Source: an uncultured bacterium
GTDB lineage: Bacteria; CSSED10-310; CAZUFC01
Reading direction: 5' to 3'
DNA: 64,000 nucleotides
NCBI GenBank assembly: GCA_964619725.1
Contig: CAZUFC010000004.1
Span: 75,420-139,419, forward strand
Within the stretch, counting starts at the first letter, position 1. Each line of letters starts with the position of its first letter. Below the pieces are notes generated by a model. That model was given only the letters and a program-made list of their open reading frames with translations. It ran no database searches and was not told the origin of the DNA. Both the position numbers and the translations under genes were made by a program. This document shows positions 21,559 through 51,983 of this stretch, piece after piece.

Positions 21559-22809
21559 TTACAGCCCATATTGAGCGATTATTTCTTTTTTGTCTTTGCC
21601 TAGAATATCGTATTTCTTGCCGACTTTGATGAATGCTTCAATGGCTTTGTCGAGGTGCTCACGGGTATGAACGGCTGATATTTGAGTCCTGATTCTAGCT
21701 TGACCTTTGGGAACGACGGGAAAAGCGAAGCCGATGACGTAAATGCCTTCGTAATAAAGGTCTCGGGCCATATCCTGAGCGAGTTTAGCATTGTAAAGCA
21801 TAATAGGAGCGATGGGGTGAATTCCCTCTTTTATATCGAATCCGGCTTCAGTCATTTTTTTCCGGAAATACATCGTATTTTCTTCCAGAATATCTCTTCT
21901 TTCAGTAGTTTTGGTTATAATGTCCATAACGGCATTAGCGGCTGAAACGACGACAGAGGGCATTGAATTGGAAAAGAGATAGGGTCGCGCTTTTTGTCTG
22001 CATAGTTCGACGATTTCCTTCCGGCCGCTGACGCATCCTCCGGCCGCACCGCCTAATGCTTTGCCGAGCGTAGTGGTTATGGCATCTATCCTGCCTAAAA
22101 CTCCGAAATGTTCATGCGTTCCGCGCCCCTTCTTACCGACGAAACCTGTGGCGTGTGAATCGTCAACAAGTACCATGGCGCCGTATTTTTCTGCCAGATC
22201 GCACATTTCGTCCAATTTCGCCAGGTCACCGTCCATAGAAAAAACGCCGTCTGTTATGATCATGCTGAATCGACAATCTTCTTTGGCTTCTTTTAATTTC
22301 TTTTCCAGATGTCGCATATTGGAATGCTTATACACATAGTGCTGCGCCTTACACAATCGCATTCCATCTACTATGCTGGCGTGAACCAGCTTGTCTGCAA
22401 TCATGGCATCTTCAGGTCCCAGAACGGCTTCAAACACGCCTGCGTTGGCATCCATGCACGAGGGAAATAAAATTGTGTCTTCAGTGCACAAAAAGTCCGT
22501 CAGTTTCTTTTCTAAGGATCGATGAATGTCCTGCGTCCCGCAAATGAAACGAACCGAAGACATTCCATATCCTCTTTCGTCCAATCCTTCATGGGCCGCT
22601 TTAACAACATCGGGATGACTGGATAATCCTAAATAATTATTCGCACAGAAGTTTATAACAGTTTGCTTCGGAGCTCCCTTGGGGAATTCCACCTCGATGT
22701 CTGCTCCTTGAGGTGAATGGATGAAGCGTTCTTCTTTAAATAGCCCCTGTTCTTTTATGCTGTCCAGTTCTCCTTGAAATGTGTTCCTGATAGTATCTGG
22801 ATAAGCCAT
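21559..22809 (-). CDS. kbl: Glycine C-acetyltransferase (2-amino-3-ketobutyrate CoA ligase)
   Basis: NFCANNYLGLS, GMSSVRFICGTQDIH, HASIVDG, TDGVFSMDG, DDSHATG, TLGKALGG (PLP Lys), RPYLFSN, ARIRTQ. Confidence 0.92.
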   Translation of the reverse strand: MAYPDTIRNTFQGELDSIKEQGLFKEERFIHSPQGADIEVEFPKGAPKQTVINFCANNYLGLSSHPDVVKAAHEGLDERGYGMSSVRFICGTQDIHRSLEKKLTDFLCTEDTILFPSCMDANAGVFEAVLGPEDAMIADKLVHASIVDGMRLCKAQHYVYKHSNMRHLEKKLKEAKEDCRFSMIITDGVFSMDGDLAKLDEMCDLAEKYGAMVLVDDSHATGFVGKKGRGTHEHFGVLGRIDAITTTLGKALGGAAGGCVSGRKEIVELCRQKARPYLFSNSMPSVVVSAANAVMDIITKTTERRDILEENTMYFRKKMTEAGFDIKEGIHPIAPIMLYNAKLAQDMARDLYYEGIYVIGFAFPVVPKGQARIRTQISAVHTREHLDKAIEAFIKVGKKYDILGKDKKEIIAQYGL

Positions 22810-22863
22810 CTTTCCTCCTTCATAGATTTCATTCAGGAAATTTCGCTAAAAAAATCATTAAAC

Positions 22864-23133
22864 TTATTTTAGTTGATCTTCAGGTACGTACTCCTTTAAA
22901 AGCTCTATAATGCTGTTGACGGAGTCGAAAGCGTCGGGGGTCGCTTTAGCATCAGGTATCTGGATTTTGAATTTTTTCTCAAGATACGTTTTCAAAGAAA
23001 CCATGGAGAAGGAGTCGACGATTCCGCTTGAAATAAGAGGCGTATCCGCCTCGATATCCATTTCATCATCATCATCTTCTTCTTCAAGATATTCATCCTC
23101 AATGTATTCAATTATTTCATCTTTTAAGGCCAT
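22864..23133 (-). CDS. Acyl carrier protein
   Basis: 89 aa and very acidic, with a phosphopantetheine attachment motif (PLISSGIVDSFSMV). Confidence 0.9.
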   Translation of the reverse strand: MALKDEIIEYIEDEYLEEEDDDDEMDIEADTPLISSGIVDSFSMVSLKTYLEKKFKIQIPDAKATPDAFDSVNSIIELLKEYVPEDQLK

Positions 23134-23155
23134 AATTCACGTCTCCTTTCGTAAT

Positions 23156-24856
23156 TTATTCTTCTTCAAGTGTTGAAGTGTCCCCGATGGGTTCACCAGT
23201 TTCTTTTGCCCTTAGAAGCCGCCGCATAATTTTCCCGCTTCTGGTCTTCGGAAGAGAAGGAACGAATTCTATTTCCTGGGGCATAGCCAATGGAGAGAGC
23301 CGTTTTCGAATATGATTCATGATCGAAAGTTCCATATCATCGTCGTGTTCGAATTCCGGTTTAAGCGCGATGAAAGCCTTGACTACTTCCATATTTATCG
23401 GATCGGGTTTTCCGATGGCGGCGGATTCGGCGACAGCCGGATGCTCCAGCAACGCTGATTCAATCTCAAAAGGACTGACCAGATGACCGCCGGTATTTAT
23501 AACGTCGTCATCACGGCCGACGAACCAGAAATAACCCTCCTCGTCGATTCGGCTTCTGTCGCCGGTTATGTACCAACCGTTTTTAAATTTTTCTTTGTAC
23601 ACGTATTCATTTTTCCAATAGTTGCGAAACATGGAGGGCCATTTCGGTTTGAGAGCCAGTAATCCCAACTGACCGGCCTTTTCCACAGGCTCATACGTTT
23701 TAGGCTTTAAAACGGCAGCCTCTATTCCGGGAAACGGTTTACCCATCGAACCCGGCTTAATCTTCATGCCCGGATAATTCGCAATCATGATGCTGCCGGT
23801 TTCTGTCTGCCACCATGTGTCATGGAAAGGCAGACCGTATGCTTCCTCAGACCATACTACGGCCTCGGGATTTAACGGTTCTCCCACGCTGCACAAGTGT
23901 CTCAACGATGACAGATCGTATTTTTTGATTATCTCTTTCCCTTCACGCATGAGCAGGCGGATAGCCGTCGGAGCGGAATACCAGACTGTTATTCTATGCT
24001 TCTGGATGGCCTCATACCACCTTGAAGGAAAAAAACCGCTGTCGAGGACATACTGAGTAATTCCAAGGCTCCAGGGTCCGATTATTCCGTATGAGGTTCC
24101 TGTTACCCAGCCCGGGTCTGCTGTACACCAATAAATGTCGTTTTCATCCAGATCGAGAACCCATTTCGTCGACAGATATTGAGAAAAAATTGAACTGTGA
24201 ACGTGCAAAGCCCCTTTCGGCTGTCCCGTTGTTCCCGATGTGTAATGAAGGACAGAAGGCGTTTCTTCATCCGTTTCGCATATATCGAAATGTTCCTTCC
24301 TGGGCGCAGCTTCCACTGAAAAGGGAATTTCTTTTTCCTTTAAGGTTTTTTCGCCGGCATCGATAACGATTATATGCTTTAAGTCAGGCAGCTTCTCTTT
24401 TATCGGTCTGACCTTCCTCAACAATTTTCGCATCGTAATGATTACATTGGCCCCTGAATTTTCTATCCTCGTCAATAATGATTCCTCACCAAAGGCCGAA
24501 AATAGCGGAACCACAACACAACCGTTCTTTAATATTCCTAAAAAGGAAATATAAAGCTCCGGGACCCTGTCAAGATATAGACATACTCGCTCGCCTTTGT
24601 TTACGCCGAGTTCTTTAAGCAAATTCGCGAATGCGTTGCTGTAATATCGCAGGTCGTTGAAGGTGTATTCTTTTGACTCTCCCTTGAAGTTTTCCCACAA
24701 TAATGCCTTTTTTTCTCCGAGTCCGAGCTCGCATATTCTGTCGCTGCAATAATACCCTATATTGATGGATTCGCCTGGTTTATAATTCAGTTCGCGCTTG
24801 GCAATGTCCCAAGAGAAGTTTTTTCTGGCTTCTTCATAATTACCGATGTTGTTCAT
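23156..24856 (-). CDS. acsA: AMP-forming acetate--CoA ligase (AcsA-like; may act on the ACP)
   Basis: YTSGTTGQPKG, WCTADPGWVTG, VGEPLNP, DTWWQTETG, GRDDD, LPKTRSGKIMRR. Confidence 0.88.
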   Translation of the reverse strand: MNNIGNYEEARKNFSWDIAKRELNYKPGESINIGYYCSDRICELGLGEKKALLWENFKGESKEYTFNDLRYYSNAFANLLKELGVNKGERVCLYLDRVPELYISFLGILKNGCVVVPLFSAFGEESLLTRIENSGANVIITMRKLLRKVRPIKEKLPDLKHIIVIDAGEKTLKEKEIPFSVEAAPRKEHFDICETDEETPSVLHYTSGTTGQPKGALHVHSSIFSQYLSTKWVLDLDENDIYWCTADPGWVTGTSYGIIGPWSLGITQYVLDSGFFPSRWYEAIQKHRITVWYSAPTAIRLLMREGKEIIKKYDLSSLRHLCSVGEPLNPEAVVWSEEAYGLPFHDTWWQTETGSIMIANYPGMKIKPGSMGKPFPGIEAAVLKPKTYEPVEKAGQLGLLALKPKWPSMFRNYWKNEYVYKEKFKNGWYITGDRSRIDEEGYFWFVGRDDDVINTGGHLVSPFEIESALLEHPAVAESAAIGKPDPINMEVVKAFIALKPEFEHDDDMELSIMNHIRKRLSPLAMPQEIEFVPSLPKTRSGKIMRRLLRAKETGEPIGDTSTLEEE

Positions 24857-24920
24857 TTATCAAGACTCCTTTTTGATTTGAAGCTGAAGATAGGTTCAGA
24901 TCGCGTTTGGAGCGGTTTCT

Positions 24921-25979
24921 TTATTCTTCACCCGGCATGGGATAAAAAACTATTTTAGATGAGCTTCTTGTTGGGTCCGCAGCAAGCTCAAGGCCTTCTA
25001 TCGCTTTTGAAAACGGCATCGTATGAGTTATTACGGGGGTCGGATCCACAAGTTGATTGTTTAACAATCGGCTGATCTGTATCCAGGTCTCAAACATCTT
25101 ACGACCGTTAATGCCGATTATATTGGCTCCCTTGAAGATTATATTATTCGCCAAGTCAAACTTGATCGGCTCAGGAGGTATGCCGAACGCAGTGTAAGAC
25201 CCTCCGCGTCTCAACATCGCAAAGGCGTCCGCAACTGCTTTCTCGTTGCCCGCCATGTCCAATACTACATCTACTCCGCCGTTTGTGCTCTCAAGTATTC
25301 GTTCAATGTAATCCTTCTCTTTCATTACATTATATGTGTAATCAGCTCCCATCTTCCTGCAAATGTCGAGATTGAAATCCTGCATACCAATATTGTAAAT
25401 CTTCGCTGCTCCCACAGCACGAGATATCCCGACGGCAAAAGCCGCAATCGGTCCGTCGCCCACTACGCCTACTCGCTGCAAAGATACACGACTTTCCATA
25501 ACTGTGTATGTCGCATTGCCGAACGGTTCCTGAATGGATGCTATCACTGGAGAAAGTGATGCAGCGTTTTTCCAGCAGCATACCTCCGGAACGGTTATGT
25601 ATTCGGCAAAACTTCCATTCCTGTCTACACCCAGAATCTCGACGTTTGAACATATATGCATCTGTCCCGTTAAGCATTGAAGACAATTTTGGCAGGGAAT
25701 ATGGGTTTCACCCGAAACATAATCACCTATCTTGATGTTTCTGACGCCCGAACCAATCTCCACCACTTCGCCTGCGAATTCATGTCCGAGAATTTGCGGG
25801 GTTTTAATGCGACTTTGAGACCATTTATCCCAAGTGTATATGTGAACGTCGGTTCCGCATACAGATGTCGCTTTTATTTTAATCAAAGCTTCATTTTCAC
25901 CCGGAATGGGTCGATCAACCTCAACCATCTCAGCTCCATAATCGGGCTTTAGCTTCACTATCGCTTTCATCTTTTTCAA
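24921..25979 (-). CDS. tdh: L-threonine 3-dehydrogenase (Zn-dependent MDR family)
   Basis: CGTDVHIYTWDKWSQSRIK, GHEFAG, VSGETHIPC..C..C.......C, EPFGNA, GINGRKMFETW. Confidence 0.85.
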   Translation of the reverse strand: MKKMKAIVKLKPDYGAEMVEVDRPIPGENEALIKIKATSVCGTDVHIYTWDKWSQSRIKTPQILGHEFAGEVVEIGSGVRNIKIGDYVSGETHIPCQNCLQCLTGQMHICSNVEILGVDRNGSFAEYITVPEVCCWKNAASLSPVIASIQEPFGNATYTVMESRVSLQRVGVVGDGPIAAFAVGISRAVGAAKIYNIGMQDFNLDICRKMGADYTYNVMKEKDYIERILESTNGGVDVVLDMAGNEKAVADAFAMLRRGGSYTAFGIPPEPIKFDLANNIIFKGANIIGINGRKMFETWIQISRLLNNQLVDPTPVITHTMPFSKAIEGLELAADPTRSSSKIVFYPMPGEE

Positions 25980-26092
25980 TGCTTTACTCTCTCCTTTTTA
26001 AATATTTTTGCTTTCTTCGAAATTTGCTTATTAATTCATCAAAAGACAAGATCATTACCGCTTGCGTTGCAGCGACCCTAAATCAAAAAGCG

Positions 26093-26383
26093 TCAGAATT
26101 TTACCAGCGAGCCGTCCACGAGTATCTCGTCGATTATGCCGACAACTACCGTTCGCACCGGCGCTCTCTTGTTATCAAGGATAAGTCGTGCTGAATTGCC
26201 TTCGTCAAGAACCAGAACCGTATCTCCGATACCGGCATCCACTTCACTGCATAAAGCCATCTGAGCGTCGCCGGTCTCGTTCAATTCCCTGTCTAAACGT
26301 CGTACAAGCAACATCCTGTGATTTTTCAGTTCCGGGTGCTTAGCTGTCGCCCAAACATTTCCTACTACCCTCGCTACAAACAC
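26093..26383 (-). CDS. Microcompartment vertex protein, BMC-P (EutN/CcmL)
   Basis: MFVARVVGNVWATAKH...DAGIGDTVL...AR...VVGIID. Confidence 0.92.
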   Translation of the reverse strand: MFVARVVGNVWATAKHPELKNHRMLLVRRLDRELNETGDAQMALCSEVDAGIGDTVLVLDEGNSARLILDNKRAPVRTVVVGIIDEILVDGSLVKF

Positions 26384-26385
26384 TA

Positions 26386-26655
26386 TTACACCTCATTAAA
26401 ATCAGCGCCGTCAATAATCCCTACGATTGCGGCATCAACCGCCGGAACTGTTTTGTAGGATACAGCCGCCTCACGCGAACCCACATAAAACACGAACTCC
26501 TTATAACCCGCTCCTACAGTGTCTATAGCCACGATCGGGTCTCCCCGGGGATTCCGTTTCCAATCTGTCGGCTGCAATAAAATCAACTTCAAACCCTCTA
26601 ACGGCTCATCCTTCCTGGTTGCTACTACACGGCCAATAACGATTCCTGGCTTCAT
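26386..26655 (-). CDS. Microcompartment vertex protein, BMC-P (EutN/CcmL)
   Basis: VIGRVVATRK...AIDTVGAG...SREA...VDAAIVGIID. Confidence 0.92.
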   Translation of the reverse strand: MKPGIVIGRVVATRKDEPLEGLKLILLQPTDWKRNPRGDPIVAIDTVGAGYKEFVFYVGSREAAVSYKTVPAVDAAIVGIIDGADFNEV

Positions 26656-26658
26656 ACC

Positions 26659-26976
26659 TTATTTCTTTCCGAAATACTCCTGAGTTCGTGACTTATCGAA
26701 GACGATGCGGCCGTCACGCTCAATTAAATCCACTATCGCCATGATTGCACAGTCACAAGGAGACCCCTCCGTTAATGAGGTTTGTCTCGCTGACGAACCG
26801 GAGGCGAACAATATCAATTCTCCCTCTCCGGCGCCTACAGCATCGACTGCCACCAGAACCGTTTCTGATGGTTCAAAATTAAGGTCAACCGGCTGGATAA
26901 TCAACAGCTTCCGGCCGCCTATTCTTTCTTCTTTTTGCGTCGCTACGACATTTCCTATTACTATGGCAAATTTCAT
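26659..26976 (-). CDS. Microcompartment vertex protein, BMC-P (EutN/CcmL)
   Basis: VIGNVVATQK...VAVDAVGAGEGE...GSSAR...DCAIMAIVD. Confidence 0.93.
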   Translation of the reverse strand: MKFAIVIGNVVATQKEERIGGRKLLIIQPVDLNFEPSETVLVAVDAVGAGEGELILFASGSSARQTSLTEGSPCDCAIMAIVDLIERDGRIVFDKSRTQEYFGKK

Positions 26977-27292
26977 TTGTTCCTCAAGTGTTCAGCGAAA
27001 AAAAACACCGAAGGAATTTACCATATGGGTCTCCGGGATGTCAATGCCGTTCGTTTTTAATCTCATATTTACACTTTTCTTTTGAAAATATTATGAGTCG
27101 CTCCGGTTTCAGACATCAACCGATTCAGAAGGACGTTTGGACCTCTTTAAAGCGACATCCGCAAGACGAATAAATCACACCGACATTTACTCACAACCCA
27201 AAGAGAATTTAAATCCTTTTCCTGTTAAAACGGAATTTCCGGCCGTCCCTAAGCTGAAAACTGAAATGAAAGGTTTAATTGATGATATTAAA

Positions 27293-27414
27293 AATCAATG
27301 GCTTATAAAATAGTCAAGCATTACTGAAAGTTAGAGATACAAATGAAAGACAATGATAGAATGCACAGTTTTTCCACAAAGTAATCACAGGTTTTCCACA
27401 GACTTTGTGAAAAA
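27293..27414. promoter_or_regulatory. IHF site plus DnaA-box cluster
   Basis: AATCAATGGCTTA (WATCAANNNNTTR) at 27293. TTTTCCACA at 27370 and 27392 and reverse TTTTTCACA at 27406-27414, with weaker boxes at 27359 and 27381. Confidence 0.55.
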
Positions 27415-27455
27415 TCATAAAACTTCAAGTTATTTCAAGAAAAATTGGAGTGAAG

Positions 27456-27813
27456 AGGGGGGAAACGGAATTTAGTAATTTGATATTTCATCATAAGTTA
27501 GGCATCACCGATAATGATTGCGAAAATCGATGTTTCATTTTACCCCACCCGACAGAGTCAACCCTACGTCCCTGTCGAATCTTTACCGGAGCCGTTGCTC
27601 ATAAAACGGGAGACAGATTTTATACCGTTTCCCCCCTGATCTTAAGGATTGCAGAATTGTTTGTTCAGAAGGTGAATCGGACAAGAAGTGTCCGCGATCG
27701 AACAGAAATTCGCACCCTCAATCGAAGAGTCAAGGGTTCCACTCAACCGCTATAATGGGAAGCAATAAAGGCGCCAGACGTACAGATTCAACTCTCAATA
27801 GTTCTCTGTACGT
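27456..27813 (-). ncRNA. Candidate structured non-coding RNA, family unassigned
   Basis: A perfect 13-bp long-range stem (27456-27468/27625-27637) encloses three hairpins, with four more hairpins upstream. Four stem mismatches read as G-U pairs only on the minus strand. Confidence 0.5.
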
Positions 27814-27877
27814 TAAAAGCAGTGAAATAAAACTGATAAAAAGTCGTGAGCTGTTGGGTGGAACTGTTCGTTTTCGT

Positions 27878-28915
27878 TCATATCTTTATAACTGCATCAT
27901 CTTCTGCATTCTTTATTTTTTGAAACGCGTAAAGGCTTTTCATGAATCCGAAGGGAATGAACACTGTGGGAAGATCGGCCAGTCCGTAATGAGGGATTTG
28001 AGCGTGAAAAGCTACATCACCGACAGCAATAATGAAATAAGGGACAAAAGCGACCGCCATCGACCAGAATATCCAACTCAGGGCTCGGATTTCGATTCTT
28101 GATAATTTAGTTTTAAAGTTTTGGAGGAAGGAGATGACTCCGCCGAGGAAAAAGACGAACCAGAGGAGAAAACCCAGTATCATTAGGTTCATTTCAAATA
28201 AGAGAGCGTTTTTTCCTTTTCTAAGAATGATCAGATTCATTATTTGCGCTGACGAGAATAAAAAGAGCGACGGCAGATAAATCCAGAATTGGAAACGAGG
28301 AAATCTTCTTAGCCAGTTCACTTTTCTTGGAAAAAGCAGGAAGAAATGAAAGAAAAGGACCGGCAGCGTATAGAAAATAAAGAGATAGACAGCCCTGTAG
28401 GCTTCGGAAAGAACAGTTGAGGAGAATCTTGGAGGAGCAGTTTTAAAAAAGCAGAAACCAGTGCAAAGCAGGAAAAAGAGAATCCCGAGTTTTTTTTCCG
28501 GCGGATTCAGAAATACAAAAACACCAACCGCCAGAAAAAGCAAGCCGACGATGTTGTTTATCGAGCGCTCCAGTACGGCATGCGCGGGTAAGGACTGAAA
28601 AGTTAAAGGAATTTCCAGGATATCATCTTGTCTTTTAACCTTGTAAACGACAGTATCGCCGACCTGGAAATTTCTTCCTATCTCAATAATGTTTTTGAAA
28701 TTGTCGACCGGTTCGCCGTTGACTTCAACTATTTTATCGTTTTCCATAAAACCCGCTTTTGCAGCCGGACCAGAAGGTTCAAGGTTTTTGATAAGGAAGC
28801 TTTTTTCTCCAGACCGGGACCAACCGGCATATGGAAACGAGAATGAATCAATGATTCCTGCGCCCGAGATAATCGTCAGAATCAGAACGGCGGCAAAAAC
28901 AGTAATTTTTTTCAT
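27878..28915 (-). CDS. PDZ-domain multi-pass membrane protein with no output domain
   Basis: N-terminal TM/signal, PDZ domain (PSGPAAKAG...DKIVEVNG), then about 7 TM segments including the HFFLLFP motif. The ATG at 28915 follows the tsaC stop. Confidence 0.7.
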   Translation of the reverse strand: MKKITVFAAVLILTIISGAGIIDSFSFPYAGWSRSGEKSFLIKNLEPSGPAAKAGFMENDKIVEVNGEPVDNFKNIIEIGRNFQVGDTVVYKVKRQDDILEIPLTFQSLPAHAVLERSINNIVGLLFLAVGVFVFLNPPEKKLGILFFLLCTGFCFFKTAPPRFSSTVLSEAYRAVYLFIFYTLPVLFFHFFLLFPRKVNWLRRFPRFQFWIYLPSLFLFSSAQIMNLIILRKGKNALLFEMNLMILGFLLWFVFFLGGVISFLQNFKTKLSRIEIRALSWIFWSMAVAFVPYFIIAVGDVAFHAQIPHYGLADLPTVFIPFGFMKSLYAFQKIKNAEDDAVIKI

Positions 28916-43838: not shown

Positions 43839-44423
43839 TCAGATGAAATCTCTAAAGAGTTCCGGACGAGGACCAGGAATAACTACTTTATTGACGAGGA
43901 CGCCTCTTGCGCCGGCAAGTTCAGCCCCGGCGTTTATTGAAGACTGCACGGCGGCCACATCTCCGGTCAGCAACAAATACCCTTTTCCGCCGATAGCCAT
44001 GCAAACGTGAACCCGGAAAAGTTTAACCATGGCAGCTTTTGCTGCAGCATCTGCGCTTTCGATGATGGAGGCGGCCGAGAAGGTTTCAATGATACCCAGA
44101 GCCTTCATATCTTCCAGTTCCAGAAGTGAAGTACAGGTGATGGCCGGAAAAATATCCGGATGAACATTCGGAATAACAAGGCTTTCAATGATCTCAGCTC
44201 CTCCGGTTTGAACGCCTGCTCTGACTGAAGACTCTACCGGACCCACCATTCCGCCCACAATAACGATATATTTTCCGGAACAAACCGTACGGGCTGTAAT
44301 AAGCGTAACTTCAGCGGCTTTAAGCATGGCATCTTCTGATTCATAACCGGCAGCAATACTTGATAATTCAATCATACCGATCGCTGTAAGCGAATATCCC
44401 TTCGTTTCACTCTCATTTCTCAA
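43839..44423 (-). CDS. pduT: Tandem-domain microcompartment shell protein, PduT-like BMC-T
   Basis: AIGMIELSSIA.G...D.MLK, TVCSGKY (retains the Fe-S ligand Cys), ALGIIET, ADAAAKAA, IGGKG, GDVAAV. Confidence 0.9.
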   Translation of the reverse strand: MRNESETKGYSLTAIGMIELSSIAAGYESEDAMLKAAEVTLITARTVCSGKYIVIVGGMVGPVESSVRAGVQTGGAEIIESLVIPNVHPDIFPAITCTSLLELEDMKALGIIETFSAASIIESADAAAKAAMVKLFRVHVCMAIGGKGYLLLTGDVAAVQSSINAGAELAGARGVLVNKVVIPGPRPELFRDFI

Positions 44424-45762
44424 TTCTAATCTCCTTGTTGTCGATATGAACTACTTTTCCAGAAATTGATGCGTGAACAGGCGCTCCCAGTGCATCGGCG
44501 GGAACATCGGCAATTAATTGCCCTTCCTTTACCGTGTCGTTCTTTTTTACTATGGCTTGAGCAGCAACGCCTATGTGCATTTTCAGGGGCAGAACGACAC
44601 GGTCGCATTCCATCTTGTGCTTCATCAGCGGTCCTGTATTTGAATAATCCGCCAAGCCCAATTGTTGAATAATCTTCTTCAAAGGAGCGCGTCTTTGCTT
44701 GATCAAGGGGTGAGGTTCCGAAAGCGGATAGCTCTGTTCGTATTTTAAGCCTGCATTCTGCGCTTCTTCTTTGAACATTATACTTACATTGCGCGGGTCC
44801 AGGTTTTCAGGACAAGAGAACATGCTGCACAAATTACAACCGCTGCAAAACAGATTGTGAGCCGTGTAACCTTTCTCCCATCCTTTAAACATTAGAGCAC
44901 GCATAGATAAATGGGGTTGAATGGGATGTCCGACAAGATATCGGGGACATAGCTGAGTACAAAAAACGCATTGATCGCATGCTGATTGACTTAATTTCCT
45001 CGAATGCTCCAGCGGTCTTCGGTACCTCCGTATCAGCGGATGATCGACTGGAAAAACCAGAATAGCTCCGCATGTTTTGGTTACGGGTGTCGCCGCATCT
45101 TCCACCAGATTGCCCATCATCACGCCGTCGGATAGAATTTCATACGGTTCGTCCAGGTTCAAACTACCAGCAAATTTCAGGACATCCTCCATGAGCATTC
45201 CCAGCGGCACTTCCACGGTAAATGGATTTTCCACCGCGCCGCCCACGGTCAGAAACTTCGAAGTGACAGGAACATTCCTGCTTACGTTGTATACCGTCTC
45301 CACATTCTGGACGATCGCACCGACATCAATGGGCAAACCTCCCGGCGGAATAGCTTTACCCAGGATTTCATGTACCATGATGACTTCATCGCCTGCAGGA
45401 TAAAAATCATCAAAAGGATAAATCTCCATCTCATCGGGAATCATCGCTTCAAGCTTTTCTATCAGTTCCTCGTTTTTTTTCTTTATTCCCAGCACAGACC
45501 TGGAAGCTCCCACCATGCTTTGTATGGTCATCATCCCAGATAAGACCTCCAGCATGTAATTTTCCAGTATCTGCTTGTCTTTATGCAGAAGCGGTTCGCA
45601 CTCAGCCGCGTTTAATATCAGGACATCAGCCCAGTTTCGCAGCTTGGCGTAAGTCGGAAAACCAGCCCCGCCGGCTCCGACGATTCCATTTTTGCGTATT
45701 GATTCGACGGTAACTTCCGGATTTGTCGAAACTCTCTCTGCGCCTTCTATTCTATTCATCAT
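44413..45762 (-). CDS. pduS: PduS/RnfC-like flavin Fe-S oxidoreductase
   Basis: GIVGAGGAGFPT..K, NAAECEPLL..D, YPAGDE, NVET, an SLBB domain, two CxxCxxCxxxCP motifs, and a C-terminal sandwich domain (PL.MHIG...HASISG). Confidence 0.9.
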   Translation of the reverse strand: MMNRIEGAERVSTNPEVTVESIRKNGIVGAGGAGFPTYAKLRNWADVLILNAAECEPLLHKDKQILENYMLEVLSGMMTIQSMVGASRSVLGIKKKNEELIEKLEAMIPDEMEIYPFDDFYPAGDEVIMVHEILGKAIPPGGLPIDVGAIVQNVETVYNVSRNVPVTSKFLTVGGAVENPFTVEVPLGMLMEDVLKFAGSLNLDEPYEILSDGVMMGNLVEDAATPVTKTCGAILVFPVDHPLIRRYRRPLEHSRKLSQSACDQCVFCTQLCPRYLVGHPIQPHLSMRALMFKGWEKGYTAHNLFCSGCNLCSMFSCPENLDPRNVSIMFKEEAQNAGLKYEQSYPLSEPHPLIKQRRAPLKKIIQQLGLADYSNTGPLMKHKMECDRVVLPLKMHIGVAAQAIVKKNDTVKEGQLIADVPADALGAPVHASISGKVVHIDNKEIRIEK

Positions 45763-45786
45763 TACTTTCAGTATTTCCCGCTCAAA

Positions 45787-47481
45787 CTAAAGGTTTGTAA
45801 AATTGGGCCCGCTGCCTCCTTCGGGAGGTTCCCAAATTATGTTATTGTATGGATCAACAATAACGCAAGTCTTGCAATGGAGACAATTGGAAGGATTAAG
45901 TTTCAGTTTGAATCCATCCTCGGAATCACATTCATTTTCGTAGACCTGCGCCGGACAAAATCTTAAACAGGGATTCCCATATTCCCTGAAGCATTTTGTC
46001 GAACATATTTCTTCATTAATCACGCTGATATGAGAAGGCTGATCTTCCTCATGCGTAATACTTGCGTTGTATACGTCAGTGAGTTTGTCGCAAGTCAGCT
46101 CGCCGTCCGGTTTAAAATCGTTCTTATCGTTTTCACGACTTTCTTTTCTCTCCGCCGACTTAACCATTCTGGAATTATCAGGCGAAATCGGCAGTCTGTT
46201 TTTCAAACCTCTTCCGCCGAGAAGCCAATGTAATCCGGCTTTGGCGACGCCATAATAGACGCCTTTCTCGAAACATTGCCGGAAATTTCTTGAGCCGTAT
46301 AGTTCTTTTTCGATCCAACTTTCCTGCATTTTTTTATTGAAATTTTCCTGCAGCCCGATGGAATAATCATCATTCAACATTGCATCAAAAACGGCCTCGG
46401 CAGCTATCATTCCGGATTTAATCCCTATGTGAACGCCCTTGAGGCGTCTCGGGTTCAGTAATCCTGCTGCGTCGCCGATAACCAGAACACCCTCTACAGG
46501 CGATTTTGTAACTGAATAGTACCCGCCTTCGGGAATGGTTTTGGCGCCGTAGTAAAGGTTTTCTCCGTTTTCGAGTAATGAGCCGATCAAAGGATGAGTT
46601 TTGAACAGTTGAAAACGCTGATGAGGGTCCAGATAAGGATTTTTGTAGTCTAAACCGACAGCCAGCCCGATGCTTGCCAGATTATTGTCCATAAAATATA
46701 TGAATCCGCCGCCATAGGGATTGTTGCCCAGCGGCCACCCAAAAGTATGAATTACTCTCCCCGGACTAACCTTCTCATCAGACAGCTTCCAAACTTCTTT
46801 AATGCCTACAGCATAAACCTGGGGATTTTTCTCGTCTTCCAGATCAAACTTCTCTTTTAATTTGTCCGTAAGCGAACCTTTGCTTCCTTCACCTAAAATC
46901 GTTATTTTTGAGTGAATATCAGTTCCAGGCTCGAAATTGCTTTTCCGTTTGCCATTCTTGTCGATTCCTTTTGCACCGGTTCTTACTCCAATTATTCGTT
47001 CAGATGAATAGAGAAGCTCATTCCCGGAAAATTCCGTTAAAATTTCAACGCCTTCCTCTTCAGCGATTGAGCCCATCCATTTCATGAATTTGTTTAAAGA
47101 CAGGATGTAATGGCCTTTATTTTGGAGAAAAGGCGGAGCGTAGGGCAACCTGAATTTGTTTTTTTCCGTGAGAAAGTATACGAGGTCTTCTTTTACGACC
47201 GTTTCCCGGGGGAATCCCCGTTCTTGATATTCCGGGACCAATTCCTGCAACGAACAAGGATCAAGCACGGCTCCTGACAAACTGTGGGCCCCGATATACT
47301 TGCCTTTCTCAATAACCATTATCAAGGGCTCTTCTATCTGTTGTCCCTTTATTTTTCCTTCGTCGACTGATTTGTTGTGTTTTTTAATGAGTTGAGTTAA
47401 ATGAAGGGCGCCGGCGATGTTGGCAGGGCCGCCCCCGACAAACAGCACGTCAACGTCAAAAATTTCGTTTTCGACGGACAT
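45787..47481 (-). CDS. Electron transfer flavoprotein-quinone oxidoreductase (ETF-QO)
   Basis: DVLFVGGGPA, EKG..IGAH.LSGA, GIKEVW, YGGGF.Y, GDAAG, KGVH, HEEDQP.H, RFCPA.VYE, NCLHCKTC...DP..NI.W.PPEG. Confidence 0.94.
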   Translation of the reverse strand: MSVENEIFDVDVLFVGGGPANIAGALHLTQLIKKHNKSVDEGKIKGQQIEEPLIMVIEKGKYIGAHSLSGAVLDPCSLQELVPEYQERGFPRETVVKEDLVYFLTEKNKFRLPYAPPFLQNKGHYILSLNKFMKWMGSIAEEEGVEILTEFSGNELLYSSERIIGVRTGAKGIDKNGKRKSNFEPGTDIHSKITILGEGSKGSLTDKLKEKFDLEDEKNPQVYAVGIKEVWKLSDEKVSPGRVIHTFGWPLGNNPYGGGFIYFMDNNLASIGLAVGLDYKNPYLDPHQRFQLFKTHPLIGSLLENGENLYYGAKTIPEGGYYSVTKSPVEGVLVIGDAAGLLNPRRLKGVHIGIKSGMIAAEAVFDAMLNDDYSIGLQENFNKKMQESWIEKELYGSRNFRQCFEKGVYYGVAKAGLHWLLGGRGLKNRLPISPDNSRMVKSAERKESRENDKNDFKPDGELTCDKLTDVYNASITHEEDQPSHISVINEEICSTKCFREYGNPCLRFCPAQVYENECDSEDGFKLKLNPSNCLHCKTCVIVDPYNNIIWEPPEGGSGPNFTNL

Positions 47482-47580
47482 CAAAATTCTCCTTTAAACA
47501 GTTTTTGAAAATCGGCATCATTTTCCAAATATAATTTCCTTTTTTGTTCGGATAATCAGCAAAAGCTGGATTATCGCGTC

Positions 47581-48425: not shown

Positions 48426-51400
48426 TTACTCTTTTTTCAAGAAGTCATATTCGATGTTTTTGAAGTCAAAATCGAGTTTTTCCAGTTGTTGGTAAATGTG
48501 ATATCTGGCGAGAACGTCTTTCTGGGCTAATTCGAGAAGCGCTGAAGCGCGATCCGGCATGGAAGCTTTGAGGGTTCGGTATCTGATTTCTTTATAGATG
48601 TAGTCTGCCATGGAGATGGAAGGGGTTTTGCTGTCGATCTGCAGAGGATTTTTGCCTTCATCGCTGCGTCGCGGGTCGAAACGATAGAGAATCCAATGAC
48701 CTGAATCAACCGCTCTTTTTTGTTGTTCCAGACTTTTTGTCATATTGATGCCATGTGCTATGCAATGAGCGTATGCAATCAAGATCGACGGTCCGTCATA
48801 ACTTTCCGCTTCAGCAAAAGCTTTAACCGTCTGATTCATATCGGCGCCATAGGCGATTTTTGCGACATAGATATTTCCGTAAGTCATAGCCAACATGCCC
48901 AAATCTTTTTTAGGCAATGGTTTGCCGGCCACAGCAAATTTCGCCGTCGAACCTCTGGGAGTCGCTTTTGACATCTGTCCGCCCGTATTTGAGTAAACTT
49001 CCGTATCCAGAACCAGGAGATTGACGTTTTTTCCGGACGCCAGGACATGATCGAGACCGCCGTAACCTATATCGTATGCCCAGCCGTCTCCGCCGATGCC
49101 CCAAGTCGATTTTTTCACGAGGTAATCCGCCAGAGAGTAAAGATGTTCGTCTTTCGATTTGATCAGTCCCTTAAGCTCTTCGACTCTTTTTCTCTGATCG
49201 TTTATATCTTCGTCAGTTTTTTGCTCGGAATCCAGGATAGCTTGTTTGAGTTCGGCCGGAACATCAGCTTCTTTGAGCAATCTTTGAGCGGTTTCGGTGA
49301 ATTTATCGACGGTTAAACGGAATCCCAACGTTATTTCAGCGCAATCCTCAAAGAGACTGTTCGTCCAGGCCGGTCCACGTCCGTCAGCTCCTTTGGTATA
49401 CGGGGTTGTAGGTAAATTTCCGCCGTAAATGCTCGAACAGCCGGTTGCATTGCTTAAAATGGCCCGGTCGCCGTACAATTGAGTCAATAATTTTATATAA
49501 CACGTTTCTCCGCATCCTGCACAGGCGCCTGAGTATTCGAACAAGGGGCGAATCAACTGGCTGCCTTTTACTGTCGTTTTTTTAATCAGTTCCGGACTCG
49601 TTTCCGGTAAACTCAGGAAGAAATCGTAATTATCTCTTTCGTCGTCGCGCAGTTTAAGTTGATCCTTCATTTCCAGAGCCTTATTTTTCGGAGGACACAC
49701 TTCAACGCATACTCCGCAACCCACGCAATCTTCCGGCGCCACCTGAACCGTGTATTTCATCCCTTTGAACTGTTTGCCTTTTCCGTCAACGCTTTTGAAA
49801 GTCGGAGGAGCGCCATTCAGATTTTCTTCATCATAGTATTTCATTCTTATGGTCCCATGAGGGCAAACCATCGAACAAAAACCGCACTGAATGCAATTTT
49901 CCGGTTTCCATACTGGGATTTCTACTGCTACGTTTCTCTTTTCATATTGAGTGGTTCCCGTAATAAACTGTCCGTTTGCGGGCATTTGCGATACTTTTAC
50001 TTCATCTCCTTCTCGTCGGATGATTTTCGCTGTAACCTCCTTGACAAAGTCAGGAGTATGTTCCGGGACCGTCGGAGGCATTTCAATTTCGCTGTTTGCT
50101 TCATTCGGATAATCAACCTCGTAGATGTTTTTCAAAGCAGCATCAACTGATTTCAAATTCATGTCGACTATGTTCTGCCCTTTGCTGCCATAGGTCTTCT
50201 TGATGAATTTGCGGATCAATTCTATCGCCTCATCTTCCGGAATAATGCTCATTATTTTGAAGAATGCTGTCTGCATGATTATGTTGATGCGGCTTCCCAG
50301 TCCCAGTTCCTCTGCTAAATCATAAGCATTAATGACATAGAACTTCGCCTTTTTGTCAATGATCTGCTGTTGAACTTTTTTCGGAAGATGATCCCAAATT
50401 TCATCCCGTCCGAACGGACTGTTCAAAAGGAAATAACCTTCCTCCTTCAGATATTGGAGCATGTCGAATTTTTCGAGAAAAGAAAAATTATGACATCCCA
50501 AAAACTGTGCTTCATCGCACAAATAAGGACTGCGTATCGGTTTTTTTCCGAATCTCAAGTGACTTACAGTAACGGCGCCTGATTTTTTGGAATCATATTG
50601 GAAATACCCTTGCACGTTGTAATCCGTAGCTTCGCCGATGATTTTAATTGAGTTTTTATTTGCTCCCACCGTACCGTCCGATCCCAATCCGTAGAACATA
50701 GCCTGGAAAGCGTCTAAACTTCTGTTCCTGTAGGATTTGTCCCATTCCAGACTCGTGCCGGTAACGTCATCATAAATTCCCATGGTGAAGTGATTTTTGG
50801 GTTCATCTTTTTCCAGATTGTCATAAACGGCCATAACCATGCCGGGAGTGAATTCTTTGGAGCTCAACCCATACCTTCCGCCGATCACGGTGGGGTTCCG
50901 TTCAAATTTCGCCCATCCCGCATCCGCTGCTTCGGTGACGGCGGTTGAAACATCAAGATAAAGAGGTTCGCCGGTTGAACCCGACTCTTTCGTCCGATCA
51001 AGCACAGCAATCTTTTTTACGGTAGTCGGCAATGCATCTATAAAACGCTCGACGGAGAAGGGACGATACAGGCGGACCTTAATCATTCCTATCTTCCGAT
51101 CATTATGCACCTGGTCTTCGACAGTTTCATGCACGGTTTCCGCTCCAGAGCCCATTACGACAACGATGTTTTCAGCCTCCGGATGGCCCACATAATCAAA
51201 AAGCCTGTATTCGCGTCCCGTCAGCTTCTTGAATTTATCCATATATTTTTGAACTATTTCAGGCGCTTTATCATAGAAAGGATTCACGGTTTCCCGCCCC
51301 TGGAAATAAACGTCCGGATTCTGACTGGTTCCGCTGATCATCGGATGATCCGGCGACAGACCGTTATTTCTGTGCCTGATGACAAATTCATCCTCAATCA

Positions 51401-51983
51401 TTTCTTTCATGATTTCCTTGGTTACATTATCAACCTTACTGACCTCATGAGACGTCCTGAAACCATCGAAAAAATGAAGGAATGGAAGCCGGGCTTCCAG
51501 CGAAGAAGCTGTGGCGATAAGCCCCAGGTCAAGGACTTCCTGTACGCTTCCTGAAGGGATCATGCAGAAACCTGCAGCCCTGGTCGTCATTACATCGGAA
51601 TGATCGCCGAAAATCGATAGAGCTTGGCAAGCAATGGATCGCGCTGCGATGTGAAATACAGTCGGAAGCAACTCTGCAGCGATTTTAAACATATTAGGAA
51701 TCATCAGCAGCAACCCTTGCGATGCCGTGTAAGTAGTCGTTAAAGAACCGGTAGCCAAGGCTCCGTGAACTGCAGCAGATGCGCCGCCTTCTGATTGGAG
51801 TTCAGAGACTTCAGGTATAGTTCCCCAGATATTGGTTTCGCCTGCAGCAGATTTCGCATCTGAAATTTCCCCCATCGCTGAACTAGGCGTGATCGGATAT
51901 ATTGCAATGACCTCATTGCACGCATGTCCGATGGTAGCTGCAGCAGTGTTGCCGTCAATAATGATTTTACTTTGATTCGTCAT
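48426..51983 (-). CDS. nifJ: Pyruvate:ferredoxin (flavodoxin) oxidoreductase
   Basis: YPITPSS, QSEGGA, TASQGLLLM, FFDGFRTSHE, GLGSDGTVGANKN, two ferredoxin motifs, ACAGCGE, NATGCSSIYGG, GGDGWAYDIG. Confidence 0.97.
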   Translation of the reverse strand: MTNQSKIIIDGNTAAATIGHACNEVIAIYPITPSSAMGEISDAKSAAGETNIWGTIPEVSELQSEGGASAAVHGALATGSLTTTYTASQGLLLMIPNMFKIAAELLPTVFHIAARSIACQALSIFGDHSDVMTTRAAGFCMIPSGSVQEVLDLGLIATASSLEARLPFLHFFDGFRTSHEVSKVDNVTKEIMKEMIEDEFVIRHRNNGLSPDHPMISGTSQNPDVYFQGRETVNPFYDKAPEIVQKYMDKFKKLTGREYRLFDYVGHPEAENIVVVMGSGAETVHETVEDQVHNDRKIGMIKVRLYRPFSVERFIDALPTTVKKIAVLDRTKESGSTGEPLYLDVSTAVTEAADAGWAKFERNPTVIGGRYGLSSKEFTPGMVMAVYDNLEKDEPKNHFTMGIYDDVTGTSLEWDKSYRNRSLDAFQAMFYGLGSDGTVGANKNSIKIIGEATDYNVQGYFQYDSKKSGAVTVSHLRFGKKPIRSPYLCDEAQFLGCHNFSFLEKFDMLQYLKEEGYFLLNSPFGRDEIWDHLPKKVQQQIIDKKAKFYVINAYDLAEELGLGSRINIIMQTAFFKIMSIIPEDEAIELIRKFIKKTYGSKGQNIVDMNLKSVDAALKNIYEVDYPNEANSEIEMPPTVPEHTPDFVKEVTAKIIRREGDEVKVSQMPANGQFITGTTQYEKRNVAVEIPVWKPENCIQCGFCSMVCPHGTIRMKYYDEENLNGAPPTFKSVDGKGKQFKGMKYTVQVAPEDCVGCGVCVEVCPPKNKALEMKDQLKLRDDERDNYDFFLSLPETSPELIKKTTVKGSQLIRPLFEYSGACAGCGETCYIKLLTQLYGDRAILSNATGCSSIYGGNLPTTPYTKGADGRGPAWTNSLFEDCAEITLGFRLTVDKFTETAQRLLKEADVPAELKQAILDSEQKTDEDINDQRKRVEELKGLIKSKDEHLYSLADYLVKKSTWGIGGDGWAYDIGYGGLDHVLASGKNVNLLVLDTEVYSNTGGQMSKATPRGSTAKFAVAGKPLPKKDLGMLAMTYGNIYVAKIAYGADMNQTVKAFAEAESYDGPSILIAYAHCIAHGINMTKSLEQQKRAVDSGHWILYRFDPRRSDEGKNPLQIDSKTPSISMADYIYKEIRYRTLKASMPDRASALLELAQKDVLARYHIYQQLEKLDFDFKNIEYDFLKKE

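Follow-up and report, generated by a model that had tools for sequence, protein, structure and literature searches.

Which role a carrier protein and an acetate ligase may play between tdh and kbl is the question raised by a cassette found in the DNA of an uncultured bacterium (genome G000). The stretch analyzed, hereafter the window, spans 64,000 nucleotides. The canonical Tdh-Kbl pair (PDB 1fc4, 7v58), made up by members of the same two enzyme families, turns threonine into glycine and acetyl-CoA and needs neither an acyl carrier protein (ACP) nor a ligase, whereas the cassette has both. Its components are:

25979..24921, minus strand: tdh, ORF of 352 aa
24856..23156, minus strand: ligase (AcsA-type), ORF of 566 aa
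23133..22864, minus strand: ACP, ORF of 89 aa
22809..21559, minus strand: kbl, ORF of 416 aa
21508..21543, minus strand: intrinsic terminator 3' of kbl

The initial annotation had described four co-oriented genes 22-64 bp apart and a single terminator, and both ORF calls and direct inspection of the sequence bear this out. Gaps measure 64, 22 and 54 bp in the order tdh/ligase/ACP/kbl. The terminator is made up by AGAAGCCTG, an 11-nt loop, CAGGCTTCT and a T run reaching 21508; its stem of 9 bp is G+C-rich, residues 21543-21535 pairing with 21523-21515. It was not listed by the terminator scanner used because the 11-nt loop exceeds the loop limit of 8.

The Tdh protein scores 384.1 bits against NF003808 (cut-off 380) and 393.9 bits against TIGR00692, under the cut-off of 458.35. 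All five PDB entries matched at E<=1e-50 are L-threonine 3-dehydrogenases, 2d8a/2dfv being the best (329.5 bits). Tdh is 63% identical to the Tdh encoded directly 5' of the ligase in locus L086, and carries the residues G-D-G-P-I-A, with Gly at the D/E position of aligned NAD-type TDHs. GxGxxA and Gly replacing the NAD-ribose acid mark a module-linked subtype found in the window, L086, L092 and L028, distinct from canonical NAD-type Tdh; most module-linked Tdh types retain the acid. The combination of GxGxxA with a missing NAD-ribose acid is what we take to be an NADP-like signature; the basic residues often accompanying NADP binding are missing in the window's Tdh. Judged from its sequence, the window's tdh is a zinc MDR-type L-threonine 3-dehydrogenase, of the subtype whose cofactor signature is NADP-like.

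In profile searches the ligase exceeds the cut-off for NF003313, acetate-CoA ligase (796.3 vs. 729 bits), and it scores 578.9 bits against PDB 9g79, a 572-aa acetyl-CoA synthetase. Residues V251, T252, V324 and W349 of the pocket align with V310, T311, V386 and W414 of the PDB 2p2f chain, and acetate-sized pocket residues are kept in 69-70 of the 70 cluster ligases aligned. The catalytic Lys in PKTRSGKIMRR is also kept; pocket and Lys are both common to AcsA-type acetyl-CoA synthetases (NF003313, PDB 9g79). Comparison of pocket and CoA site revealed no residue change marking loss of CoA use. Leu at the R526 position had been considered as such a mark, and was rejected since it is common to non-cluster AcsA-type ligases.

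The stand-alone ACP matches PF00550 (25.1 bits, cut-off 20.8), and the serine noted at first within a DSF motif is found in D40-S41-F42, Ser41 being the predicted phosphopantetheine site. The protein is strongly acidic (pI 4.05). In the stretch G37..K48 (GIVDSFSMVSLK), 11 of 12 positions are invariant and I38 nearly so (35 sequences). The top NCBIfam match, an OlsHI-type ACP, yields 51.7 bits, far under the cut-off of 130, and matches to DltC models are weak (E 1.8e-8, 34.2 bits vs. a cut-off of 68). The family includes 4059 protein clusters at E<=1e-10, which are named only 'acyl carrier protein', by a DltC-type name, or 'hypothetical'.

Kbl scores 617.9 bits against TIGR01822 (cut-off 493), as high as canonical Kbls with the same model (610-631 bits), and matches the solved Kbls 7v58 and 1fc4 at 488.5 and 478.3 bits. 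All 81 ACP-adjacent Kbls, with one mislabelled row, form a single clade with support 100, recovered again by IQ-TREE on 55 rows under both LG+G4 and a mixture model (SH-aLRT 100). The window's Kbl falls inside this clade, and carries its marks, a C-terminal tail (GKxKxEIIxxYGL), V142, F115, P116, C270, R304, R140 and N340. Tail residues K407 and G415 are found in 82/82 members, the tail being missing from 40 of 42 other Kbls. R140 and R304 were gained in the clade, and position 142, adjacent to the cofactor-stacking His, is V in the clade, N in 42/42 other Kbls. The tail, N142V, L270C, L304R and other changes thus separate these proteins from canonical Kbl. By tree position and residues, the window's kbl product is a glycine C-acetyltransferase of the ACP-linked clade, here called KblA.

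The order ligase-ACP-Kbl was found in all 13 other ACP-holding genomes of a 40-genome sample, and recurs in most of 80 further loci, so that chance does not account for the layout. Linkage was surveyed at 92 ACP loci from many phyla, loci with enough DNA serving as denominators. Kbl lies directly 3' of the ACP in 82/86 loci (84/86 after correcting two ORF-calling artefacts), the ligase directly 5' in 67/82 (71/82 after correcting four overlap artefacts). The ligase resides 1.4-4.3 kb from the ACP in five more loci; none was found within 7 kb upstream of the ACP in 6/82. Tdh-like genes were found in 15 of the 66 loci with wide flanks, several Tdh subtypes recurring beside the module in distant phyla. 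Carrier genomes G024 and G029 (98-100% complete) hold no MDR-type Tdh; 2 of their 8 unassigned epimerase-family ORFs were checked for an SDR-type Tdh. The recurring unit is the three-gene set ligase-ACP-Kbl, not the four-gene set, and tdh is an optional neighbour of it. Of the tdh-acs-acp-kbl linkage that the initial annotation proposed to survey, the last three genes proved conserved across the loci surveyed, and tdh did not. The ACP was found in at least 580 species genomes (tblastn-confirmed stretches), and the module resides in the FCB group and other anaerobes, not in Proteobacteria.

Further genes may be associated with the module. AcpS (PF01648, holo-ACP synthase) is found in 19 of the 66 wide-flank loci and, among Acidobacteriota, in 7 of 14, often directly upstream of the module, and a 233-aa AcpS-ACP fusion occurs on two contigs. 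Natural in-frame ligase-ACP fusions of 659-660 aa, in which the ligase is full-length, were found in several assemblies (P0127 on 5 contigs, P0137 on 4 contigs, P0133 and P0136 in NCBI records). The fused forms have the domain order of DltA-DltC and of NRPS A-T didomains, in which ligase precedes carrier; the cargo of these is an amino acid, whereas that of the module would be acetate, and its ligase belongs to the Acs branch. Conserved linkage, the Kbl clade, AcpS neighbours and fusions all support the earlier notion of an ACP dedicated to ligase and Kbl. Compared to AcsA-type acetyl-CoA synthetases, the module ligase differs in preceding a dedicated ACP and in being fused to it in nature, and its acceptor may be the ACP. 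We propose that it is an AcsA-type AMP-forming acetate ligase acting as an acetyl-ACP synthetase.

No description of the ligase-ACP-Kbl layout was found in a literature search, in line with the initial annotation, which knew of no characterised system of this kind; the logic has a precedent. In Rhodobacteria (Caulobacter CC_1165, CC_1163, CC_1162), AasR is described as acylating only AcpR, and serine palmitoyltransferase as preferring acyl-AcpR (PMC9386255). The genes described there likewise group an alpha-oxoamine synthase with an ACP of its own and a ligase of the ANL family, and AasR too had been annotated as an acyl-CoA synthetase (PMC9386255). The system described handles long-chain fatty acids and serine to give a sphingolipid base; the module features an acetate-sized pocket and Kbl. 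The two also differ in that the module's ACP matched no AcpR model, and in taxa, Proteobacteria there, the FCB group and other anaerobes here.

In the main reading, the AcsA-type ligase, AMP-forming and acetate-specific, would make acetyl-AMP and load its acetyl group onto the ACP's phosphopantetheine arm, instead of or besides CoA. The thioester partner of KblA would be acetyl-ACP/holo-ACP (glycine + acetyl-S-X <-> 2-amino-3-ketobutyrate + HS-X), and a linked Tdh, as in the window, would connect the keto acid with threonine. The favoured direction would be synthetic (acetate + ATP + glycine + NAD(P)H -> threonine), the ACP providing a private, ATP-charged carrier pool, alongside the catabolic Kbl-Tdh pair that depends on CoA and lies next door in many carriers. 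We infer all three, acetylation of the ACP by the ligase, use of the ACP by KblA, and direction; taken together, they are somewhat probable. Also counted in favour are the C-terminal tail of KblA, its gained R140 and R304 beside a strongly acidic ACP, and an acetate/succinate channel gene (PF01184) adjoining the module in L028, L048, L069, L113 and L218. The earlier proposal that the ligase loads the ACP and Kbl condenses the acetyl group with glycine gains from linkage, Kbl clade, AcpS, fusions and pocket; the optional status of tdh, with no MDR-type copy in G024 and G029, weakens it. The E. coli Tdh-Kbl pair is said to form threonine when reversed in vitro.

Four points were counted for the synthetic direction. 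AMP-forming ligases normally activate acetate, and acetate kinase exceeds the cut-off in 5/5 carriers tested, acetate formation being therefore already served. The window's Tdh subtype has the NADP-like signature, and a second Kbl, outside the ACP-linked clade, resides in 31 of the 66 loci with wide flanks. No homoserine dehydrogenase turned up in 5/5 carriers tested, G000 included, which bears on the aspartate-independent route proposed earlier. Other results count against this direction. ThrC is missing in 5/14 carriers (5/13 without G000) and in 6/27 non-carriers, G000 having three ThrC-like matches over the cut-off. IlvC and TrpB are also missing in the five carriers tested, which are broad auxotrophs, and the check for absence of thrB/thrC does not discriminate for this reason.

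The same ACP chemistry might run in the catabolic direction, Tdh oxidising threonine, KblA and holo-ACP yielding glycine and acetyl-ACP, and the ligase working in reverse (acetyl-ACP + AMP + PPi -> acetate + ATP + holo-ACP), which would harvest ATP and free the carrier. We regard this as unlikely, yet it has several points on its side. The auxotrophic carriers must import amino acids, and could equally degrade threonine. A DAO-family FAD oxidase found right 3' of kbl in WOR-3 loci L070, L091, L103 and L104 fits glycine breakdown, the NAD-type acid is kept in most linked Tdh types, and the acetate channel gene is near the module in some loci. The AMP-forming acetyl-CoA synthetase of Syntrophus aciditrophicus reportedly runs in reverse. 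In contrast, acetate kinase already provides an ATP-yielding exit from acetyl thioesters, the benefit of a carrier protein in cleavage is left unexplained, and many loci hold the second Kbl, which in Ignavibacteriaceae adjoins a high-scoring NAD-type Tdh fit for that job. The NADP-like signature of the window's Tdh also argues against it.

Alternatively, ligase and Kbl might be CoA-dependent like their close relatives, the ACP serving in regulation, as a scaffold, or for another acyl or aminoacyl cargo; lying between the two genes would then not make it the acetyl carrier. Both enzymes exceed the curated cut-offs of CoA-dependent families without diagnostic loss of CoA-binding residues, the ligase sharing 57% identity with L142, an ordinary AcsA-type gene outside such clusters, and the similarity of Kbl to CoA-dependent Kbls likewise counting against the main reading. 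The cluster ligase is the sole Acs-like gene found in G000 and the only one in 13/14 carrier genomes, so it may simply be the acetyl-CoA synthetase of the cell. The adjacency of ACP and Kbl across many phyla, a Kbl clade tied exclusively to the ACP, AcpS beside the module, and fusions with the domain order of adenylation-carrier didomains make this improbable.

An additional reading, compatible with the others, stems from genes lying upstream of tdh, unmentioned in the initial annotation:

26976..26093, minus strand: EutN/CcmL triplet (microcompartment vertex genes; PF03319 95.7, 84.6 and 81.8 bits), 113 bp 5' of tdh
27015..27044, minus strand: weak promoter-like site 5' of the first EutN gene (TTGACA-18-TAAATT with TG, 10/12 matches)

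Promoter-like sites in the region (10) are not above chance, 11.7 being expected from shuffles. From eutN3 to tdh the scanner (loop limit 8) listed no terminator-like site, and a single transcript possibly covers triplet and tdh. The Tdh step of this genome and its phylum might be tied to a microcompartment, Tdh, and here the whole cassette, acting in or with it, and the ACP being a non-leaking thioester carrier. Five related genomes (G003, G005, G007, G008, G013) feature the same triplet, directly followed by a Tdh-like MDR gene of ~395 aa, with a 4-bp overlap in G005. This MDR is 56-58% identical to that right before canonical Kbl in G040; G000 has no orthologue, and the window's tdh occupies its place. 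G000 has its remaining shell genes at scattered sites, a BMC-P triplet and shell genes over several loci being also described for FRAG-/SPU-type microcompartments, as is DeoC aldolase beside BMC-H, found in G000 on contig C63 (PMC8217296). The main text of that paper does not contain 'threonine', and triplet plus Tdh-type gene is not described there (PMC8217296). A link to the compartment is nonetheless as improbable as the preceding alternative: EutN is found in 0/66 other module loci and is missing altogether from carriers G009-G012, G017, G024 and G029, neither the window's Tdh nor the ~395-aa MDR has an encapsulation-peptide-like terminal extension, and the latter, instead of being a Tdh, might be the alcohol dehydrogenase of the compartment.

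Least probable is that acetyl-ACP and 2-amino-3-ketobutyrate are made en route to products other than threonine (aminoacetone by spontaneous decarboxylation, or derivatives like pyrazines or aminopropanol), or that KblA takes another acyl group or amino acid, as the scarcity of linked Tdh-like genes, the two nearly complete carriers with no MDR-type Tdh, and the changes N142V, F115 and P116, which could alter specificity, might suggest, since KblA fits the Kbl model as well as canonical copies, the ligase pocket is acetate-sized, Tdh subtypes recur by the module in distant phyla, and G024 and G029 might have an SDR-type Tdh.

The module is widespread yet unstudied, in uncultured anaerobic bacteria. 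If the reading in which the ligase acetylates the ACP and KblA uses it is true, these organisms would make or break threonine by way of a carrier protein.

The genes of the operon lie on the minus strand of the window, behind three genes for EutN/CcmL vertex proteins (BMC-P):

26976..26093, minus strand, three EutN/CcmL vertex genes (BMC-P triplet), 113 bp upstream of tdh and on the same strand
25979..24921, minus strand, tdh, MDR-type (zinc-type) L-threonine 3-dehydrogenase, 352 aa
24856..23156, minus strand, AMP-forming ligase, 566 aa, 796.3 bits on NF003313 (AcsA-type acetate-CoA ligase; cut-off 729)
23133..22864, minus strand, small acyl carrier protein (ACP), 89 aa, PF00550
22809..21559, minus strand, kbl, 416 aa, 617.9 bits on TIGR01822 (cut-off 493)

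The tdh, ligase, ACP and kbl genes are spaced by 64, 22 and 54 bp in turn, and a clean hairpin with a T run is found 3' of kbl. ORF coordinates and hairpin thus confirm the four co-oriented genes with short gaps and a terminator described in the initial annotation, and its gene names agree with the curated-model scores. The layout as a whole holds in part: the order ligase-ACP-Kbl is conserved in other genomes, a Tdh-like MDR is found in only 15 of 66 loci with wide flanks. A promoter-like site 5' of the EutN triplet is at chance level, the region having 10 such sites vs. 11.7 in shuffled sequences. No Rfam family matches anywhere in the window at gathering scores, matches over 25900-27950 are at chance level only, and ten module loci yielded SRP RNA and one tRNA, no riboswitch being found. 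The stretch 5' of the first EutN gene (26977-27877, about 900 bp) holds neither a minus-strand ORF of at least 60 aa nor an Rfam match even at E<=1. The window also encodes, at 48426-51983, a pyruvate:ferredoxin oxidoreductase made as a single chain of 1185 aa, which fits an anaerobic metabolism centred on acetyl-CoA.

The conserved unit is ligase-ACP-Kbl, hereafter the module. Of 40 other genomes sampled around that of the window (G000), 13, belonging to several families and phyla, have the ACP, and all 13 retain the order ligase-ACP-Kbl, at 52-79% identity. A scan with the ACP alignment, over one genome per species, gave at least 580 confirmed stretches, the best 80 of which come from Ignavibacteriota, Aminicenantes and other Acidobacteriota, WOR-3, Zixibacteria, KSB1, Calditrichaceae, Chrysiogenales, Riflebacteria and others. 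The module is present in an Ignavibacterium album MAG (L087). Neighbors were counted over 92 ACP loci, the denominators being the loci with enough DNA or with wide flanks. In 82 of 86 loci the gene directly 3' of the ACP is kbl, two of the remaining four being artefacts of ORF calling; the ligase is directly 5' in 67 of 82. Four of the ligase misses are overlap artefacts, in five loci the ligase is displaced by 1.4-4.3 kb, and in six it was not found within 7 kb, unrelated genes such as those for succinate dehydrogenase subunits residing upstream. A second Kbl accompanies the module in 31 of the 66 wide-flank loci, an acetate/succinate channel in four, EutN in none. Among 251 Acidobacteriota genomes sampled separately, the ligase is present at E<=1e-150 in 29, a tally which includes one genome flagged as unpublished (G194); 12 of the 14 Acidobacteriota loci examined carry ligase-ACP-Kbl, seven with AcpS in front.

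Further variation was observed around the module. In five loci of Aminicenantes and Chrysiogenia with a displaced or missing ligase (L067, L074, L080, L085, L088), an ORF of 118-171 aa with no Pfam match is found just upstream of the ACP. A DAO-family FAD oxidoreductase with weak similarity to SoxB and ThiO directly follows kbl in the WOR-3 loci L070, L091, L103 and L104; in L103 and L104 tdh is also found upstream of the ligase, with AcpS between the two in L104, resulting in a five- to six-gene operon. In L090, L093, L101 and L112 a Tdh-like MDR of about 408 aa, featuring a long insert in the catalytic domain, directly precedes AcpS-ligase-ACP-Kbl-Kbl (in L101 AcpS went undetected), and is a further Tdh subtype linked to the module.

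The ACP matches PF00550 with 25.1 bits (gathering cut-off 20.8), and its D40-S41-F42 residues (D-S-x motif) are invariant in 35 sequences. AcpS adjoins the module in 19 of the 66 wide-flank loci and is fused to the ACP on two contigs (P0122 and P0138 in the protein collection); G000 has one AcpS-like gene, on contig C19. AcpS neighbors and AcpS-ACP fusions indirectly support a role of the protein as a putative 4'-phosphopantetheine carrier. At E<=1e-10 the protein collection has 4059 clusters of this ACP, whose names are limited to acyl carrier protein, DltC-type or hypothetical. Membership in the OlsHI-associated ACPs (NF052616) was rejected, the score being 51.7 bits vs. a cut-off of 130; this lead was dropped as irrelevant, since OlsH requires neither ACP nor CoA according to PMC12493201.

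The ligase is 57% identical to an AcsA-type gene residing outside such clusters, and scores 578.9 bits against the solved 572-aa synthetase 9g79. Its residues V251, T252, V324 and W349 align with V310, T311, V386 and W414 of the PDB 2p2f chain, which shape the acetate pocket of the enteric enzyme; each of the four is retained in 69-70 of the 70 ligases from such clusters. In 13 of 14 genomes carrying the module's ACP (carriers) no Acs-like gene was found besides the cluster ligase, and likewise in G000. The equivalents of R191, R194 and R584 in the window's ligase are R147, R150 and R517, but are not diagnostic for CoA as the acceptor, because 9g79, the solved AcsA nearest to it, has other residues there. 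Leucine at the R526 equivalent was considered as a switch between CoA and ACP and discarded: all 70 cluster ligases have it, and so do the AcsA-type genes of L142 and L157, which lie outside such clusters. Residue comparison with solved and non-cluster relatives revealed no substitution marking the loss of CoA use.

The strongest link of this putative acetyl-ACP synthetase to the ACP is provided by natural fusions, all evidence for which comes from the protein collection. Full-length ligase is fused in frame to the ACP in proteins of 659-660 aa, which form two clusters derived from NCBI, JGI and Logan assemblies; one record, from a Vicinamibacterales MAG, is annotated as acetate-CoA ligase. 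The fusions share their domain order with adenylation-carrier didomains. In unfused relatives the ligase and ACP genes are often in one frame, 12-72 nt apart, and the loss of one stop codon is therefore sufficient to join them. Because of this common frame, the long matches found in Acidobacteriota all contain stop codons. No stop-free ligase-ACP fusion was found in the 251 genomes of this phylum. The long form P0121 appears to be a frameshift artefact; P0123 and P0131, made up by the ACP plus patchy Kbl, are ambiguous.

Kbl proteins linked to the ACP are set apart from other Kbls. The tree included 124 sequences, those with fewer than 330 aligned residues or less than 45% identity to the window's Kbl being left out (L134, L135 and the BioF-like L115_8570 among others). 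All 81 ACP-adjacent Kbls, plus one mislabelled row, form a single clade (KblA) with support 100; outside of it fall 38 second copies and five Kbls from genomes lacking the ACP. The same split was obtained with IQ-TREE on 55 rows (28 of the 82 clade rows, 22 of the 38 second copies, and all five others), SH-aLRT being 100 under both LG+G4 and a mixture model, the latter run as a quick search. H143 (in LVHAS) and K250 (in TTTLGKALGG), presumably the cofactor-stacking histidine and the PLP-binding lysine of the window's Kbl, are invariant in 35 clade members and align with the same residues of solved Kbls. Changes fixed in the clade are N142V, beside the stacking histidine, Y115F, S116P, L270C, L304R, R140 and D340N. 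A C-terminal tail of 13 residues is conserved in all clade members, including those from genomes with no detected EutN, and is absent from 40 of 42 other Kbls. On serine palmitoyltransferase (SPT) models the window's Kbl scores 232-322 bits, all under the cut-offs, vs. 617.9 bits as Kbl. In the phylum of the window Kbl was found only in genomes also holding the ACP, and 8 of 14 carriers have no Kbl besides the ACP-linked copy. Genomic context and clade marks suggest that ACP, not CoA, may be the thioester partner of KblA.

The Tdh of the window is over the cut-off of NF003808 (384.1 vs. 380) and under that of TIGR00692 (393.9 vs. 458.35), and its five PDB matches at E<=1e-50 are threonine dehydrogenases without exception. 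It features G-D-G-P-I-A instead of GxGxxG, and a glycine where the solved 2d8a and 2dfv have glutamate. Binding of the NAD ribose relies on an acidic residue at the end of beta-B, whose loss along with an altered GxGxxG is NADP-like; the cofactor motif of the window's Tdh is accordingly read as a putative NADP-like signature. GxGxxA and glycine in place of the acidic residue of NAD-type Tdh are also found in the Tdh adjoining the module in L086, L092 and L028. MDR-type Tdh was not found in two complete carriers, G024 and G029. A search for SDR-type Tdh in these two genomes gave 20 epimerase-family matches; 17 ORFs were scanned, eight had no assignment, and two of these eight, compared with PDB entries, look like sugar-nucleotide enzymes.

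In G000, genes for BMC-H, BMC-T and BMC-P shell proteins are all present, scattered over several loci. Besides the triplet preceding tdh they include:

contig C63, 289-573, BMC-H, beside a DeoC aldolase
window, 43839-44423, tandem BMC-T, beside a PduS-like protein (joint span 43839-45762)

The tandem BMC-T gene overlaps that of a PduS/RnfC-like flavoprotein (Complex1_51K, RnfC_N, Fer4), followed by an ETF-ubiquinone-oxidoreductase-like gene (43839-47484); this arrangement suggests a redox module which may be tied to the scattered microcompartment genes. At the start of contig C63 (L172, 289-2894), BMC-H is followed by the DeoC-family aldolase and a pyrimidine nucleoside phosphorylase, a gene set reminiscent of SPU-type (sugar-phosphate) microcompartments. 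A triplet and scattered shell genes are features of FRAG-type microcompartments, as reported in PMC8217296, the main text of which does not mention threonine. The same BMC-P triplet is found in five more genomes (L205-L208, from G005, G003, G007 and G008, respectively, and G013, contig C187), directly followed by an MDR of about 395 aa which scores 233-254 bits on the Tdh model; in G005 the two overlap by 4 bp. The MDRs of G003, G005 and G007, the three compared, are 77-78% identical to each other and 56-58% identical to the MDR which in G040 immediately precedes a canonical Kbl; their identity to the window's Tdh is only 29-34%. As no orthologue of this MDR was found in G000, two unrelated Tdh-like genes hold the same place after the triplet. 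No terminal extension resembling an encapsulation peptide was seen in the alignment of the window's Tdh. The triplet-Tdh link is confined to one phylum, and does not belong to the module in other groups.

The initial annotation had proposed a carrier-protein-dependent route from glycine and acetate to threonine, and the evidence on its direction is mixed. Acetate kinase is over the cut-off in 5/5 carriers tested, and homoserine dehydrogenase was found in 0/5 carriers vs. 14/14 control genomes; both were counted for synthesis, as were the NADP-like Tdh subtype adjoining the module and the second Kbl outside the clade, some copies of which lie beside NAD-type Tdh. KblA and the second copy recall the split between ACP and CoA in fatty-acid synthesis and breakdown. 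Counted against synthesis were the DAO-family oxidase following kbl in WOR-3 loci, the two complete carriers lacking MDR-type Tdh, three ThrC-like matches in G000, and the failure to find IlvC and TrpB in the same five carriers, which therefore look like broad amino-acid auxotrophs. The five are G000, G009, G017, G024 and G029, three of them 98-100% complete, and the control genomes all gave matches. Absence of ThrC does not distinguish carriers from other genomes: it is missing in 5 of 13 carriers (G000 excluded) and 6 of 27 non-carriers, an anticorrelation which is not clean and is confounded by broad auxotrophy. A search covering the TIGR00191 type of thrB gave no match over the cut-off in the five carriers. 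Given these opposing lines of evidence, we commit to a predicted ACP-dependent acetyl transfer, and only lean to the putative synthetic direction. The full scheme, in which an Acs-family acetyl-ACP synthetase, a private ACP, an acetyl-ACP-condensing Kbl clade and an NADPH-type Tdh would carry out ATP-driven synthesis of threonine from glycine and acetate, supplying threonine in many uncultured anaerobes that lack homoserine dehydrogenase and wired to microcompartment shell genes in one phylum, is put forward tentatively, and we consider it rather doubtful as a whole. Such a route would mirror the fatty-acid rule, ACP for synthesis and CoA for breakdown.

The module follows the logic described for AasR, AcpR and serine palmitoyltransferase in PMC9386255, here with acetate, glycine and Kbl. 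Both systems cluster an alpha-oxoamine synthase with its dedicated ACP and ANL ligase; the cargo of the AasR/AcpR/SPT type is a long-chain acyl group and its amino acid serine, whereas the module features an acetate-sized pocket and Kbl as the synthase. A full-text literature search retrieved no account of a Kbl linked to an ACP, nor of any Kbl that takes acetyl-ACP as its substrate.

Textbooks describe Tdh and Kbl as CoA enzymes, and the genes of the module, now annotated as acetyl-CoA synthetase, acyl carrier protein and Kbl, are read as ordinary catabolism. The module is widespread, and the claim made for it can be directly tested with three or four soluble proteins. If true, its ligase would be the first enzyme of the Acs branch to charge an ACP, and its Kbl the first to use acetyl-ACP, a new kind of substrate for both families within a large and phylogenetically wide Kbl clade. 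If the route is synthetic, it would provide a short route to threonine from glycine plus two carbons, which would interest pathway engineers. The reconstruction of threonine, glycine and acetate metabolism would change for Ignavibacteriota, Aminicenantes, WOR-3, Zixibacteria, KSB1 and related uncultured groups.
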